From a virus: a stretch of DNA of 64,000 nt. The stretch is taken from the IMG/VR virus record IMGVR_UViG_3300037042_004723, positions 96,001-160,000 of that record; one strand, given 5' to 3'. The notes under the pieces are model-generated. The model had not been told where the DNA came from and made no database searches. It was given only the letters and a program-made list of their open reading frames with translations. Numbering within the stretch: the first letter of the stretch is position 1; each line of letters opens with the position of its first letter. The position numbers were made by a program, and so were the translations under genes. Of the stretch, positions 1 to 6,466 are shown piece by piece.

Positions 1-17
1 TTCTTTGGTAGCCATCG

Positions 18-90
18 TGGCAGCGGGGAGTTCCGACCTCCTGCACCGTACGCCTTATGAGAGCGTCGTCCTGACCCGCAGGTCGCTGCC
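18..90 (-). tRNA. Non-canonical tRNA-like gene, anticodon CAT (elongator Met-like)
   Basis: Minus strand: GGCAGCG/CGCTGCC perfect 7-bp acceptor stem, A73, D stem CCTG/CAGG, anticodon arm ACGCT-CTCATAA-GGCGT. T loop is aberrant (GTCGGAA); followed by CGA, not CCA. Confidence 0.55.
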
Positions 91-101
91 AAAGTCTGTC
101 G

Positions 102-175
102 TGGGCCTGCTTGGAATCGAACCAAGCTTATTCATCGATTATGAGTCAAGTGCCATACCACTAGGCGACAGGCCC
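102..175 (-). tRNA. tRNA, anticodon CAT (Ile2- or Met-like)
   Basis: GGGCCTG/CAGGCCC acceptor, A73, T arm CTTGG-TTCGATT-CCAAG, loop CTCATAA. Weak anticodon stem (C27-U43 mismatch) and 7-nt variable region. C4-G69 and C5-G68 as in Ile2 tRNAs. Confidence 0.75.
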
Positions 176-187
176 ATCGCCGGATCA

Positions 188-216
188 CGGGTACCTTGCA
201 GCCTGCCCATTGTCAA
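188..216 (-). promoter_or_regulatory. Sigma70-like promoter for the two distal CAT tRNAs
   Basis: TTGACA-N17-TACCCG on minus strand, ending 12 nt before the tRNA at 175; perfect -35, weak -10. Confidence 0.4.
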
Positions 217-263
217 GAACCGTCGGTTGTCAGGTTGGTCCGACTTGTAGTACTACATAGATC

Positions 264-581
264 ATGTTCAGGCTGCTGATCAGCGAGTGCCGCGCCTCCC
301 TCTCGGAGTCGATCGAGAAGTCAGGTGAGACCTTCGCCGGATTCAACAAGCCCAAGCGGACACCTGAACACCCCAAGAAGTCTCATGCCGTCCTCGCCAA
401 GGACGGCCATGGTACGAAGCTAATCCGATTCGGCCAGCAGGGCGTCTCAGGCTCTCCCAAGAAGCAGGGCGAGTCAGACGCCTACCGCAGTCGCCGAGAG
501 TCATTTAAGGCCCGACACGCGAAGAACATCAGCAAGGGCAAGACGTCAGCTGCTTACTGGGCCGACAAGGTGAAGTGGTAA
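264..581 (+). CDS. Small basic phage protein with putative capsid-targeting leader
   Basis: 105 aa. The FNKPKRTP...KSHAVLAK...IRFGQQG...SAAYWADKVKW block resembles a widespread phage family of unknown function. N-terminus MFRLLISECRASLSES is shared with the next gene. Confidence 0.8.
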   Translation: MFRLLISECRASLSESIEKSGETFAGFNKPKRTPEHPKKSHAVLAKDGHGTKLIRFGQQGVSGSPKKQGESDAYRSRRESFKARHAKNISKGKTSAAYWADKVKW

Positions 582-602
582 CCGCTATGATTCGAGGAAA
601 TC

Positions 603-1106
603 ATGTTTAAGTCTCTCATCTCCGAGTGCCTCGCCTACCTCTCCGAAGCAGGCGAGGAGAACCAGCCCGTCAAGGCGCCCAGGAAGCACAAGCATGATCG
701 AGCCGCCGAGCGGACTGGTCACCTCTTGAACACACCACTTTCGAGCATGTCTCGCAGGAAGATGCTCAAGACGATCCCCCACCTGCACCACCACTTCGAG
801 AAGGGGCACGGCAAGGGCGAGGGAGACTACCGAACGGTAGACCTGGATGACCTGAATACCCTTAGCAAGCATGCTGAGCAGATCTCCAACGACGCGAATG
901 CAATCATGCGGATGCCTGGACCGGCGCACCACCTGGCTGGTCACCTCTGCAAGCATGTTGCGAGCGCTCACGAGCGGATGAGCAAGTACTGGACTGACAA
1001 CAGTGACAACGAGTCCGCCGAGCTTCACGGAAGCGAGAGCGCCAAGTATGGCGACATGGCCAAGCACCATCACAAGGTTTCCAAGCGCCACGGGTACGGT
1101 TACTAG
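603..1106 (+). CDS. His-rich hypothetical protein with the same N-terminal leader
   Basis: 167 aa, 19 His; N-terminus MFKSLISECLAYLSEA; GAGGAAA upstream. Confidence 0.75.
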   Translation: MFKSLISECLAYLSEAGEENQPVKAPRKHKHDRAAERTGHLLNTPLSSMSRRKMLKTIPHLHHHFEKGHGKGEGDYRTVDLDDLNTLSKHAEQISNDANAIMRMPGPAHHLAGHLCKHVASAHERMSKYWTDNSDNESAELHGSESAKYGDMAKHHHKVSKRHGYGY

Positions 1107-1179
1107 TCCGCCGAGATGGACTTGAACCAGCAACCTATCGCTTATAGGGCAGCCGCTATATCCATTGAGCTATGGGATC
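1104..1179 (-). pseudogene. Chimeric tRNA-like gene, anticodon TAT
   Basis: GATCCCA-TA-GCTC-AATGGATA-TAGC-G-GCTGC-CCTATAA-GCGAT-AGGTT-GCTGG-TTCAAGT-CCATC-TCGGCGG-A-CTA. tRNA spacing and T loop are intact, but the acceptor stem does not pair and the anticodon stem pairs poorly. Confidence 0.7.
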
Positions 1180-1183
1180 AGAA

Positions 1184-1436
1184 AGGTGACTCTCCACGTC
1201 CGAAGTGTTTATCGGCCGCTGGCTTGCGCCAACCATGCCCGGTCGACCAAGCCTTGCGGCTCACCGACTCCGGGATCTACCCTCGCCTGGTAAAGAGTCT
1301 AAAAAGAGGGGCCGCCGCCCCGGATGTTTAATGTGCGCGGGACCCTAGGTTCGACCGACGCAAGCGCTTGCGCTGCTATTGCGTGAGAAGTGCTCGATGC
1401 TGTTTTGGATGATAACCATCGGACTCCGGCTCACCT
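1184..1436 (-). ncRNA. Candidate structured non-coding RNA (~250 nt), family not recognised
   Basis: ORF-free gap closed by nested end-to-end helices (AGGTGA/TCACCT, GTCCGA/TCGGAC, TTATC/GATAA). Internal hairpins GAGCC-GCAA-GGCTT, GTTGGC-GCAA-GCCAGC and GGGGC-GGCG-GCCCC. Same strand as the tRNAs. Confidence 0.55.
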
Positions 1437-1442
1437 AAAATG

Positions 1443-1715
1443 TCAGGCCTCTGCGGTTCCGATCGGAATCTGGAAGGAGAGTCCCTCCCCTTCCAGGAAT
1501 CTCGCGTGGAGGCGGTTGATCAGCTGGTCGAAGGTGAAGCTGTCATCTGACGAGCCAACGTGCGTGTGGTCCTCGCCGATGTAGAGGGTGATGGCATTCC
1601 CTCCCCAGTCTGGCCCGAACGAGACAACTGGAGCCGTTGGATCTTTGCCGGCTGCGGCATCGCAGAGCCGGACAATCTCTTTCAGTATCTCTTCGCATTT
1701 CTCAGCTGTCGTCAT
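1443..1715 (-). CDS. Hypothetical protein (90 aa)
   Basis: ATG at 1715 (MTTAEKCEE...). The track start at 1742 lies inside tRNA-Glu and was trimmed. Confidence 0.7.
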   Translation of the reverse strand: MTTAEKCEEILKEIVRLCDAAAGKDPTAPVVSFGPDWGGNAITLYIGEDHTHVGSSDDSFTFDQLINRLHARFLEGEGLSFQIPIGTAEA

Positions 1716-1717
1716 CG

Positions 1718-1790
1718 TGACCCCGGTGAGAATTGAACTCAACGTCTTCGCTGTGAAAGAGCGACGTACTAACCATTATACGACGGGGCC
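1718..1790 (-). tRNA. tRNA-Glu (TTC)
   Basis: GGCCCCG/CGGGGTC acceptor, D stem GTAT/GTAC, anticodon arm TCGCT-CTTTCAC-AGCGA, T loop TTCAATT; one T-stem mismatch; no encoded CCA. Confidence 0.88.
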
Positions 1791-1802
1791 GTGATTGTCA
1801 CG

Positions 1803-1873
1803 AGCGTACCGAGGGAGTTCAACCGAGGTCGATCGCTTACAAGGCGATCATTCCGCCACCGAACTACTCCACA
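1803..1873 (-). pseudogene. Chimeric tRNA-like gene, anticodon TGT (Thr)
   Basis: Good D arm (GTTC/GAAT) and perfect anticodon arm ATCGC-CTTGTAA-GCGAT. T stem CTCGG/CCCTC and acceptor TGTGGAG/GGTACGC do not pair. Confidence 0.7.
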
Positions 1874-1897
1874 GTAAGATCGTGTATATTCAAGTCT

Positions 1898-2071
1898 ATG
1901 AACGACAAGCGAAAGCAAAGCCTCTACTTCCCAGAAGACATGCTGGCGGAGGTCCAGGCCGAAGCCACTCGCCTGGACCGCTCGCTCTCTTGGGTGGTCC
2001 AGCGCGCCTGGACCCTCTCAAGGGAGAAGCTGAAGGAGATCCCTTCAATCAACCAGCCAACAGAGACAGAC

Positions 2072-2074
<3 letters not shown>
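1898..2074 (+). CDS. MXAN_4361/MXAN_4362-family (TIGR04563-like) small ribbon-helix-helix-type protein
   Basis: Not in the ORF track. 58 aa: MNDKRKQSLYFPEDMLAEVQAEATRLDRSLSWVVQRAWTLSREKLKEIPSINQPTETD. The KQSLYFPE...DRSLSWVVQ.AW signature was recognised from memory as a myxobacterial family. Confidence 0.8.
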
Positions 2075-2148
<74 letters not shown>

Positions 2149-2154
2149 GGTCAG

Positions 2155-2183
2155 ACTCTGCGCAAAAATCTGCGAATAGTCAA
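2155..2183 (-). promoter_or_regulatory. Sigma70-like promoter of the tRNA cluster
   Basis: TTGACT-N17-CAGAGT, ending 6 nt before the tRNA 5' end. Confidence 0.5.
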
Positions 2184-2298
2184 GGCCGAGGTGATGTCCA
2201 GCTGTAAGTATATGAATTCATAATATACACCGTAGCGTAGGGCGCGGTGTCTTACACGTGGTTGATAGGTGAACGGACCGTTACATTACTGACAACAC

Positions 2299-2326
2299 TT
2301 GCTTTACCCTGCATTGTTGGCATAAT
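2299..2326 (+). promoter_or_regulatory. Divergent sigma70-like promoter
   Basis: TTGCTT-N16-CATAAT with extended -10 TG; upstream of the GGGAGG RBS of the gene at 2354. Confidence 0.45.
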
Positions 2327-2353
2327 CAAGGTCATCCCAACAGGGAGGCCCCT

Positions 2354-2680
2354 ATGAAGTACACACGAGTTCTCATCGCGAAGGTTGCCCTTCGAGTCGC
2401 TTCGGAAGACGAGGTCTTCTGGGTGGAGAAGTGCATCAAGGAAGGCTGCGGCTGTGCGGAGGAGATCAAGAACATCCGTGCGCTCTCCAGCCTGCCCAGG
2501 ACGCACTCCTGCGTCGAGGATGCGGCCCTGATCGTTATCGCTGACAAGAACAAGATGTCCATGTCCGACGAGGACCACATCTTGTCCTGTGGGCGCTGCG
2601 CAAGGATTGGTCAGTACATCGCCAGCATGCCGTTCCCGGCCACCCCCGCCCAGACGAGGTCGCTAGCCCTGGCCGGGTAA
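2354..2680 (+). CDS. Cys-rich hypothetical protein
   Basis: 108 aa, GGAGG RBS, CxxxxCxC and HxxxCxxC motifs. Confidence 0.75.
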   Translation: MKYTRVLIAKVALRVASEDEVFWVEKCIKEGCGCAEEIKNIRALSSLPRTHSCVEDAALIVIADKNKMSMSDEDHILSCGRCARIGQYIASMPFPATPAQTRSLALAG

Positions 2681-2703
2681 CGCTTCCACGACCAGTGGCC
2701 GAC

Positions 2704-2746
2704 GGCCAGCAAGCCTAGAGATAGTCCTGCTGGCCTTTTTTGTTTT
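2704..2746 (+). terminator. Intrinsic terminator
   Basis: GGCCAGCA-N16-TGCTGGCC followed by TTTTTTGTTTT. Confidence 0.65.
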
Positions 2747-2785
2747 CTACAATGTCTCTAGACAATTGGATCTGTTATCGATAGC

Positions 2786-3067
2786 GTGGCTGCGATGAAG
2801 GCTCTGCTAGCGCTAGCAATGGCTGGGTTACTAGTCGTTGCGACGATCGGGCTATCCGGCGAGGGGGCCGTCTGGACCAGATACGTTGGCGCAGGGATGG
2901 TGTTCGCTCTGCTGATGCTGATCTTGACCGGGGTATCGAACATCCCAAGCACGACAGATCTCAAGAAAATGATGATGGGCGCTGATCCTACTATGGCTCC
3001 GAAGTCCATGCCGGTCGTTCCCGACGACGATGACGAGCTTCCTAGCCGGCGCAGCGCCCGCAACTGA
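2786..3067 (+). CDS. Small membrane protein (two TM segments)
   Basis: Two hydrophobic stretches then a charged tail; stop overlaps the next start; exact start uncertain. Confidence 0.65.
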   Translation: MAAMKALLALAMAGLLVVATIGLSGEGAVWTRYVGAGMVFALLMLILTGVSNIPSTTDLKKMMMGADPTMAPKSMPVVPDDDDELPSRRSARN

Positions 3068-3687
3068 TGTCGAGTCGCATTCTTATACTTGACGTCGATG
3101 CTGACAAATACGACGGCATCGTAGAGGCGCTTCGCAAGAAGCCTTCGGTCCGCGTCGTGTCCATGGACCGCGAGGCCCGCAGGCACCTTCGTGAGTGCCC
3201 GGCGTGCTGTCGGAAGCTGTCCAAGGAATCGGCATTTACGATCGACGAGAAGATCATCGACGCCCTGATCAAGGTCACGCAGCGGATGCGGGTCGCCAAG
3301 ACCGTCGTCTTGGTGAACGAGGACAATCCGCAATCCGCCTTGTCATCCATGGAGCACGAGCGATGCGTCGAGGTAGACGCTGTGGTTGCTCAGCGTGCGG
3401 TAACCCTGGGCCTCCTGAAGCCGTTTATGGACGGCGCCCGGCTGACTCACTACGTCAGTGCGTCCGGGCTGGAATTCCTGTCGGGTAACAAGCCAGCCTC
3501 GCCCTGCACGATGCATGTGCTCGATGGCGAGGTCGTGGAGACCAGCGGAGAGATGATGATCGAGAACGTAAAATTCAAGGATGTCCACCGAGCGACATCC
3601 GTAGCCAGAGATGGGGCCAGGGCTGTGAAGGCCATCCCCCAGCACGTGACGAACTTCGTAATTAACGGCCAGATGAGCCTTATTTAA
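3067..3687 (+). CDS. Hypothetical protein with CxxC and a C-terminal QMSLI motif
   Basis: 206 aa, TGATG coupling; ends NGQMSLI. Confidence 0.75.
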   Translation: MSSRILILDVDADKYDGIVEALRKKPSVRVVSMDREARRHLRECPACCRKLSKESAFTIDEKIIDALIKVTQRMRVAKTVVLVNEDNPQSALSSMEHERCVEVDAVVAQRAVTLGLLKPFMDGARLTHYVSASGLEFLSGNKPASPCTMHVLDGEVVETSGEMMIENVKFKDVHRATSVARDGARAVKAIPQHVTNFVINGQMSLI

Positions 3688-5125: not shown

Positions 5126-6466
5126 ATGGCCAAGATTGCACTAACTATCAGCGAAGATTACTGTCCGGAATGGGATCTGTTTTGCGGAATTCGCGAGTTC
5201 ATGCAGAACGCGCGTGACGCTACCAGGGTGGGCTGTACGTTCGATGCAGTCTACCTGGCCGATGCCAACGTCGTTCGAATCAAGACGACTGGCGCGGTTC
5301 TAGAGCATCGCACGCTGCTTCTGGGCGAGTCCTCGAAGCGGGGCCGCTCGGACATGCTGGGGCAGCAGGGGGAGGGCTACAAGATTGGCTCCCTGGTCCT
5401 CTGCCGGCTTGGCAAGGGCGTCAAGATTCGGACCGGTGACGAGGTCTGGATTCCGGTCATCGAGTACTCGAAGCAGTTCGGCGCCAAGGTGCTGCACTTC
5501 GATATCTCCAAGGGCCGCAAGAACGTCAACGAGGTCGTCGTCGACATCTCCGGCGTGACCGAGGAGGAGTGGCGCTCGATCAAGAACAAGTTCTTGTTCA
5601 TCGAGGACGAAGGCCAGACGGTGGTTGAGTCGCCCGCCGGCTCAGTGATCATCGATGGCGTGGGTCACATCTTTGTCGACGGCATCTGGGTGTGCCGCCT
5701 GGCGAAGCTCAAGCACGGCTATGATTTCCGTCCGGCCGATACCAAGCTGGACCGTGATCGTCGCTTGATGGAGTCGTGGGAGGCCCACACCCTTACGGCC
5801 AGGGCGTGGGAGGCGCTGTACATGCGGTCCACGCGCGAGTACTGCGAGCGGGTTGATGCCATGCTGGCTGACGCCACTCCCGATGTGGAGCACTTCCGCT
5901 ACGACTGGTGCGTGGGCATGAACACGCGCAAGCAGGTCGCCAGCCGGTTCAAGGAGAAGTTCGGCGAGAAGGCCATCCCGGTCAAGACCGAGAGCGAGGT
6001 CCGAGAGGCAGAGTTCTACGGTCGCCATGCGGCCGTTGTCGATGCGGCCCCGCTCAGAGATATCTTGGAGCGAGAAATCGGCACCATCGAGTCCGTGAAG
6101 CGAGACTTGGCCGATGAGGTTGTGGCCGAGCATACTGCCATCAGCCTGGAGCCGTTGGAGTCCAAGAATTTCATGATGGCGATGGAGTTCGTGTCCAAGG
6201 CCATCAAGAAGTCTGGGCTCACGTTGGCCAAGGACATTACGATCGTCGAGTTCCGTAGTCCTTCGGTGATGGGCATGCGGAAGGGCGACAAGATCTACCT
6301 GAGCCGCAACACGCTTGGCTCATTCGAGGAGGCCCTCAAGACTCTTGTTGAAGAGGTGGCTCACGAGTTCGGTGCAGATGGAACGCACAATCACGTCGAA
6401 AGAATGCATGAGATCTACGCCAACGGCGTGGCGATGCTTTTGACAGAAGGACCAGGTAGTGCCTAA
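5126..6466 (+). CDS. GHKL (Hsp90/MutL-like) ATP-binding protein
   Basis: IREFMQNARDA (N box), LGESSK...GQQGEGYKIG (G boxes); C-terminal zincin-like LVEEVAH. Confidence 0.75.
   Translation: MAKIALTISEDYCPEWDLFCGIREFMQNARDATRVGCTFDAVYLADANVVRIKTTGAVLEHRTLLLGESSKRGRSDMLGQQGEGYKIGSLVLCRLGKGVKIRTGDEVWIPVIEYSKQFGAKVLHFDISKGRKNVNEVVVDISGVTEEEWRSIKNKFLFIEDEGQTVVESPAGSVIIDGVGHIFVDGIWVCRLAKLKHGYDFRPADTKLDRDRRLMESWEAHTLTARAWEALYMRSTREYCERVDAMLADATPDVEHFRYDWCVGMNTRKQVASRFKEKFGEKAIPVKTESEVREAEFYGRHAAVVDAAPLRDILEREIGTIESVKRDLADEVVAEHTAISLEPLESKNFMMAMEFVSKAIKKSGLTLAKDITIVEFRSPSVMGMRKGDKIYLSRNTLGSFEEALKTLVEEVAHEFGADGTHNHVERMHEIYANGVAMLLTEGPGSA

Follow-up and report, generated by a model that had tools for sequence, protein, structure and literature searches.

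Opposite-strand stop codons shared with CCA-less tRNA genes, and probable deletion scars, in a reduced phage tRNA array

In tRNA precursors without an encoded CCA, RNase Z cuts 3′ of the discriminator base, and CCA is then added (PMC1874595, PMC7479834). RNase Z is inhibited by trailers that begin with CC, and the RNA of RNase P pairs with C74 and C75 (PMC1874595, PMC7479834). The B. subtilis model of RNase Z and the CCA-adding enzyme is that of Pellegrini et al. 2003, as cited in PMC1874595 and PMC7479834. In processing of the B. subtilis type, positions 74–76 are replaced after transcription, and they are therefore usable by a neighbouring gene. Here we describe two such neighbours in a stretch of viral DNA of 64,000 nucleotides (nt), referred to as the window, which comprises bases 96001–160000 of a 197,279-bp IMG/VR virus record (IMGVR_UViG_3300037042_004723, designated G000) from one metagenome assembly. 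Two protein genes on the plus strand of the window converge with a minus-strand tRNA array, and the TAG stop codon of each reads CUA at positions 74–76 of a tRNA-like gene. We propose that this arrangement reflects inherited tight packing of genes against CCA-less tRNAs, combined with erosion of the tRNA array by deletions, and we assign this explanation a probability of about 0.78.

The bases after the discriminator were compared in 137 tRNAs predicted by ARAGORN in the record and in three relatives (G001–G003), with position 73 set by acceptor pairing. Like the CCA-less tRNA genes of B. subtilis, 99 of the 137 phage-family genes do not encode CCA, and CTA stands at both sites in the window. 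Unlike B. subtilis, for which the example trailer begins with U74 A75, the phage family keeps C74 (136 of 137) and mostly changes C75: position 75 is C in 52 genes, G in 42, T in 33 and A in 10, and A76 is present in 91. The triplets at positions 74–76 include CCA (38), CGA (33), CTA (12), CTG (10), CCG (10) and CAA (8). CTA is an unremarkable one among the many C-N-A trailers of the family. An altered middle C of CCA, which an earlier sequence-only reading had noticed in the window, is thus family-wide, with C75 in only 52 and complete CCA in 38 of the genes. The near-invariant C74, found together with few encoded CCAs, suggests a constraint that may act on C74 alone. Because C74 is nearly invariant, TAG is the sole stop codon able to fill positions 74–76 on the opposite strand.

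The first of the two genes, at 603–1106 on the plus strand, encodes a conserved phage protein of 167 residues whose reading frame ends with G-Y-G-Y-TAG and which has no match in the Pfam, PHROG or NCBIfam profile libraries. Its stop codon (1104–1106) reads CUA on the minus strand, after A73 (1107) of a tRNA-like gene at 1107–1179. The second gene, at 1898–2074 on the plus strand, encodes a 58-residue ribbon-helix-helix (RHH) protein of family TIGR04563, with a score of 103.1 bits against a cut-off of 65 and coverage of model positions 3–53 of 53; the profile search also returned a weak match to RHH_1. The stop codon of the RHH gene (2072–2074) reads CUA on the minus strand, after U73 (2075) of a tRNA-like gene at 2075–2148. 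Both tRNA-like genes have unpaired acceptor strands, and the coordinates and acceptor counts confirm the sequence-only reading in placing each CTA right after N73 of such a gene. It was also correct that the three tRNAs of the window with paired acceptor stems end in A73-CGA. These intact minus-strand genes, tRNA-Met(CAU) at 102–175, a second CAU tRNA at 18–90 with an ortholog in G001, and tRNA-Glu(UUC) at 1718–1790, form seven of seven acceptor pairs each. The same reading took each protein gene and its tRNA 3′ fragment for a fused cassette whose stop had come from a change of CCA to CTA. The coincidence of CTA and TAG is real and is conserved in G001 and G002, but the fused cassette and the conversion did not survive the comparison with relatives.

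Thirteen homologs of the RHH gene were found in IMG/VR, four of them inside tRNA arrays (loci L002–L005 of records G001–G004). In G001 and G002, the TAG of the RHH gene occupies positions 74–76 of an intact tRNA-Thr(CGU) that ends in U73-CUA, and the junction GGGCU-CUA-G is common to the window and these two records. In G003 and G004, the tRNA at the end of the RHH gene encodes CCA, and the RHH open reading frame (ORF) has no TAG there; it reads on for 22 nt along the antisense strand of the tRNA and stops at a TGA supplied by the T loop. The last seven RHH codons (L004/L005:3156–3177) lie opposite the acceptor and T stem of an intact tRNA-Thr(UGU) with an encoded CCA, and this is a true antisense overlap of 22 nt between a protein gene and a tRNA gene. 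Comparison of orthologs for TGG read-through versus TAG, which the sequence-only reading had proposed, therefore agrees with it in part at this locus: TAG accompanies the CTA-ended Thr(CGU) of G001 and G002, and the CCA-encoding G003 and G004 run through, to TGA. The distant homologs (L006–L014) have other stops and no adjoining tRNA, except for two plus-strand tRNA(CUA) genes that flank the homolog in L009.

In G001–G003 and in six metagenome contigs, an ortholog of gene 603–1106 (46–71% identity) is found at the corresponding place in the array, downstream of tRNA-Ile(UAU). A single-protein search of IMG/VR returned none of these relatives, an alignment-based search returned only four known ones, and a scan of metagenomes added the six contigs. 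In G001, the TAG of the ortholog lies at positions 74–76 of an intact tRNA-Ile(UAU) that ends in A73-CUA, and the junction GGA-CTAG-TA is common to G001 and the window. The ortholog in L025 apparently ends in the same way, in a contig that stops 5 nt further on. Other relatives differ: the stop is TAA at positions 75–77, with C74 kept, in L026, and TGA one base past the encoded CCA of a tRNA fragment in L031. In the remaining five, the homologous Tyr-TAG end of the gene is retained at a distance from the nearest tRNA or tRNA fragment that amounts to 7 nt in L029, 9 nt in L028, 73 nt in G002, 251 nt in G003 and about 300 nt in L027. Since Tyr-TAG is kept whether the tRNA is 0, 7, 73, 251 or about 300 nt away, the TAG of gene 603–1106 is, to judge from its orthologs, the gene's own stop codon and not a converted CCA. 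G002, G003, L027 and L029 thereby provide the case that the sequence-only reading had itself named as making the overlap coincidental, namely the same TAG without an adjoining tRNA fragment. The exact abutments in the window, as their presence at orthologous loci indicates, are inherited and not two lucky events. Abutment is no fixed rule, because other spacings occur in relatives.

The tRNA array of the record lies on the minus strand and extends from 90.9 kb to 98.15 kb of the genome, so that its upstream end forms the first 2.15 kb of the window. It is strongly reduced, with 8 intact tRNAs in G000 vs 37–47 per whole record, in one orientation, in G001–G004. Around the RHH gene homologs of these four records, the arrays are also on the minus strand and contain 20–24 tRNAs per 6 kb. 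Alignment by blastn showed that the array order of G000 is collinear with that of G001–G003, and that the breakpoints are inside tRNA genes.

The two tRNA-like genes that abut the protein genes combine parts of different tRNAs. In the Arg(ACG)/Ile(UAU) pseudo-tRNA (1107–1179), the 5′ flank, acceptor strand and D arm are those of tRNA-Arg(ACG), and the sequence from the D arm onward, including the anticodon loop CCUAUAA (UAU), is that of tRNA-Ile(UAU). The blastn match of window 1404..1156 covers a G001 spacer and the first 24 nt of Arg(ACG), the match of window 1177..1101 covers G001 Ile(UAU), and their 22-nt overlap places the junction at about 1156–1177, in the D arm. The remainder of Arg(ACG) and the whole of Arg(CCG) are gone. 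The acceptor strands GAUCCCA/UCGGCGG form three of seven pairs, the T stem has one mismatch, and the Rfam tRNA model (RF00005) gives 21.8 bits, below its gathering score of 29 bits, over model positions 7–64 only. In the fMet/Thr(CGU) pseudo-tRNA (2075–2148), an initiator-like body of 74 nt, the 5′ end through the T loop is that of initiator tRNA-fMet, and the 3′ T-stem and acceptor strands are those of tRNA-Thr(CGU). Up to and including GGTTCAAATCC, which contains the junction (about 2086–2096), its sequence is exactly that of the G001 initiator tRNA, and from there on it follows the Thr(CGU) 3′ strand. Here window 2985..2086 aligns with G001 992..1890, up to the T loop of the initiator tRNA, and window 2095..1898 with G001 5905..6102, which extends from the T loop of Thr(CGU) to include the RHH gene; the two high-scoring segment pairs overlap by 10 nt. 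Relative to G001, a stretch of about 4 kb is missing, and with it about 18 tRNA genes. Its acceptor strands UGCGGAA/CGAAGGC form one of seven pairs, and the Rfam score of 33.3 bits comes from a local alignment of model positions 8–63 that includes neither acceptor strand. The Thr-derived acceptor strand now reads CGAAGGC in place of CGUGGGC, a drift of the kind that a dead tRNA should show. A 94-nt tRNA-Met proposed by ARAGORN at 2056–2149 was rejected as a forced fit to this 74-nt body with a foreign 3′ strand.

The parentage of the halves was assigned from the best match of each half and from alignments (with G001 fMet and G002 Thr(CGU)), which agree with the blastn blocks. For both fMet|Thr(CGU) and Arg(ACG)|Ile(UAU), the halves are separate tRNAs in the same order in relatives, and the genes between them are absent from the record. 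Both gene-abutting chimeras are therefore best read as deletion scars of an eroding tRNA array, and the tRNA 3′ pieces beside the genes as the remains of tRNAs that already abutted them. A third and more degenerate chimera on the minus strand (1808–1873) has a Gln-like 5′ end, the anticodon arm of Thr(UGU) and a Cys(GCA)-like 3′ end; it scores 19 bits with Rfam, has three T-stem mismatches and carries no plus-strand gene at its 3′ end.

These junctions bear on the fused cassette of the sequence-only reading, in which each plus-strand gene and its tRNA 3′ fragment would be a mobile unit that inserts into tRNAs, replaces their 3′ ends and turns CCA into CTA. Gene and 3′ piece do occur together in G000, G001 and G002, both gene-abutting tRNAs of the window have foreign 3′ ends, and G003 has CTAG at both ends of an insert of about 250 nt between tRNA-Ile and the 167-residue gene. 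Nevertheless, we consider this explanation very improbable. The array is collinear with that of relatives, every chimera has its 5′ part from the nearest upstream tRNA that survives, and the loss of the intervening tRNAs explains the chimeras. The supposed fragment is an intact resident tRNA in relatives, and with the Arg|Ile junction placed in the D arm, the Ile tRNA was retained almost whole. The TAG is conserved at a distance from tRNAs, and the third chimera has no attached gene. Moreover, no direct repeat of the tRNA 3′ fragment, as expected of an att repeat, flanks the genes within window positions 1–3000, and searches against Pfam, PHROGs and NCBIfam found no recombinase domain in the proteins of 264–3687 and no integrase or nuclease domain in the proteins of the supposed cassettes.

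An assembly artefact, in which repeated tRNA loops of the metagenome were wrongly joined and the tRNAs of the real phage are intact, would account for the fact that one IMG/VR assembly contains the junctions and that no second record does. We regard it as the most improbable of the explanations. The shared stretches are merely 10–22 nt long, all three junctions are collinear deletions, and the retained 3′ strand bears extra substitutions of its own. Fragments of tRNAs are also found in independent contigs of relatives, and the abutment of stop codon and tRNA does not depend on the junctions.

Based on these comparisons, a history of packing and erosion can be proposed. Most tRNA genes of the family lack an encoded CCA, hence the bases after position 73 or 74 would be free in the DNA. 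Protein genes would have become packed against the tRNAs, with convergent stops at positions 74–76 and same-strand ATGs 2–5 nt past position 73. The ancestors probably had the RHH gene against an intact tRNA-Thr(CGU) and the 167-residue gene against an intact tRNA-Ile(UAU), and these abutments would have been passed down. Most of the array may then have been removed as non-adjacent tRNAs recombined at their conserved D and T loops. This would have brought the tRNA count down from about 45 to 8 intact genes, with fMet|Thr(CGU) and Arg(ACG)|Ile(UAU) as the remaining fusions, neither of which can pair its acceptor strands. On this history, the tRNA 3′ pieces remain beside the genes by mere adjacency, and the TAGs are kept as stops that the protein genes require. 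The CUA-ended intact tRNAs of relatives would be trimmed and then given CCA by host enzymes, since no phage CCA-adding enzyme (PF01743) was found in the profile search. C74 may be kept for processing. We speculate that C74 with a broken C75 could hold part of the RNase P contact and yet allow endonucleolytic 3′ cleavage.

Several points weigh against this history. An exact-match search found the fMet|Thr junction in no second IMG/VR record, and G000 is a single assembly. The parentage of the third chimera is loosely assigned and less certain than that of the other two. The Ile/167-residue gene junction could have arisen by loss of a spacer in G000 and G001 or by gain of one in G002 and G003, and the double CTAG in G003 hints at a possible insertion into an ancestral abutment. 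The tRNAs and transcripts of the phage family are known here from DNA alone. Finally, a third pair with TAG at exactly +1, a 67-residue ORF with Cys(GCA) in G002, adds to RHH/Thr and 167-residue/Ile, and three independent pairs could mean that exact overlap is favoured and not merely tolerated. The antisense pairs of ORF and tRNA considered are hand-checked cases only, as shadow ORFs of sense-strand genes look conserved too.

If the exact sharing of CUA and TAG were itself selected, the antisense tRNA or its remnant could serve as a structured 3′ end by which the convergent mRNA is stabilised or terminated, or antisense RNA from read-through of the tRNA operon could time expression of the embedded genes, and the remnants would be kept. 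Besides the three pairs, this would fit the tRNA remnants that still lie beside the 167-residue gene in L028 and L031, and the position of the convergent genes within a long same-strand tRNA transcription unit. However, the spacing among orthologs ranges from 0 to about 300 nt with three different stop codons, no intrinsic terminator is predicted after either gene, and the ends of the deletions at the highest identity between tRNAs are explained by recombination alone. A scan for promoters and terminators found no more sites than in shuffled sequence. We consider selection for exact sharing unlikely and favour inherited packing followed by erosion.

Compaction is also seen on the strand of the tRNAs. 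An ATG-initiated ORF of at least 50 residues begins 2–5 nt past position 73 in 15 of the 137 tRNAs (cgATG, ccATG, ctgATG), which indicates compaction on both strands. For Val(UAC) and Arg(CCU), the ORF that follows has orthologs throughout G000–G003. In the window, the ATG at 1715–1713, which starts a 90-residue minus-strand ORF after Glu(UUC), and the ATG at 15–13, with which the next minus-strand ORF begins after the second CAU tRNA, take their A from A76 of a CGA trailer. There is no room for a leader before the post-tRNA ORFs, and tRNA processing might therefore release near-leaderless mRNAs. The triplet after the discriminator could be a shared punctuation site, in which C74 is fixed and positions 75–76 are used in starts (cgATG, ccATG) and stops (CTA), with C74 held perhaps as an RNase P contact or an exonuclease stop. 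We put this forward as a doubtful extension. If it were true, tRNA excision would free near-leaderless mRNAs and set gene ends, as a bacterial-virus analogue of mitochondrial tRNA punctuation.

Recoding of TAG in the record was considered on account of a release-factor-like gene and of suppressor tRNAs in a distant relative. The array contains, just before the window, a gene for a 210-residue release-factor-like protein (genome 93752–94381, L001:7752–8381, minus strand), with an RF-1/GGQ domain (1.4e-30) and a best NCBIfam match to prfA of 178 bits, far under the cut-off. Two amber-suppressor tRNAs with CUA anticodons (L009:2900–2973 and 3232–3308) flank the RHH homolog of a 407-kb phage contig, which hints at TAG recoding in that distant phage. 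In G000, TAG ends 26 of the 72 ORFs of at least 250 residues (about 36%). With a third of the long ORFs ending in this ordinary stop, there is no need to read TAG as sense, and recoding in G000 was rejected; the absence of a CUA-anticodon tRNA from the tRNA set of G000 also counts against it.

Further features were observed near the two genes and in the array. Gene 264–581, which matches phrog_7595 (3.6e-38), has no counterpart at the same site in G001–G003. It shares with gene 603–1106 a start region of 60 nt with 72% identity (window 261–320 and 600–659; MF.LISEC...), and it appears to be an inserted gene with an acquired copy of its neighbour's start. A 14-nt near-repeat (1009–1022 and 1102–1115) was put down to chance, with about 0.7 expected by a rough estimate. 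The tRNA-Ile(UAU) genes of two contigs (L026:3002–3091 and L029:1823–1913) are 90–91 nt long and have a long extra arm, unusual for Ile tRNAs. The non-coding spacer of about 225 nt upstream of the Arg|Ile chimera (1180–1404, minus strand) shares 79% identity with the one that separates Thr(GGU) from Arg(ACG) in G001. Within it lies a palindrome, GCAAGCGCTTGC, that is also found after Ser tRNAs of the phage family. Outside the window, tRNA-Leu(UAA) shares 10 nt with tRNA-Leu(UAG), which is short at 75 nt (genome 94918–95058, L001:8918–9058, minus strand), and the 3′ acceptor strand of Leu(UAA) doubles as the 5′ acceptor strand of Leu(UAG). This pair is probably a further deletion product, because 7 nt separate both genes in G001. 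A tRNA-like gene at 93453–93536 (L001:7453–7536, minus strand), missed by ARAGORN, has a paired acceptor and encodes CCA; its best Rfam match is tRNA-Sec at 28 bits. Its position matches that of tRNA-Ser(GGA) in relatives, and its D arm is probably degenerate.

The main value of these observations lies in annotation and in the evolution of phage tRNA arrays. In phage arrays, a tRNA-like hit with an unpaired acceptor need not be a new RNA or a mobile cassette but can be the scar of a deletion, and recombination between tRNA loops can strip a phage lineage of about four fifths of a set of about 45 tRNA genes. Small conserved protein genes that are antisense within tRNA operons share bases 74–76 with CCA-less tRNA genes. 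The near-invariant C74 next to a variable base 75, and the ORF starts 2–5 nt after tRNAs, offer modest leads on the processing and expression of the array.

Punctuation by tRNAs and overlaps between genes and tRNAs in mitochondria were reportedly described by Ojala et al. in 1981. Mitochondrial overlaps are mostly on the same strand, and stop codons are completed by polyadenylation. As in mitochondrial tRNA punctuation, the protein genes of the phage array end where tRNAs end, or no more than a base or two away, and the genome is very compact. Unlike in mitochondria, the phage stops are complete TAGs on the opposite strand, and the same-strand analogue would be the ATG 2–5 nt after a tRNA. The locus also resembles integrase islands at tRNA genes (attP/attL-attR) in that a protein gene lies beside a tRNA 3′ piece mismatched to the 5′ part, whereas no integrase and no duplicated fragment accompany it, the order is collinear, and the 3′ piece is that of the resident tRNA of the position. 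Closer still in outline are the tRNA region of T4 and T6 with SegB (PMC2330249, PMC13096335) and other viral tRNA clusters (PMC6409571), which are likewise dense and contain small embedded ORFs. In the T4/T6 region, as proposed here, recombination between similar tRNA sequences rearranges the cluster and leaves hybrid genes. Unlike in T4/T6, no homing endonuclease was recognised in or beside both genes of the window, and the scale is larger, from about 45 tRNA genes to 8. The T4 review PMC3014915 contains nothing on CCA-less T4 tRNAs, and a parallel with CCA-less tRNAs in T4 is not used as evidence. The packing of genes against CCA-less tRNAs and recombination between tRNA loops are both known kinds of event.

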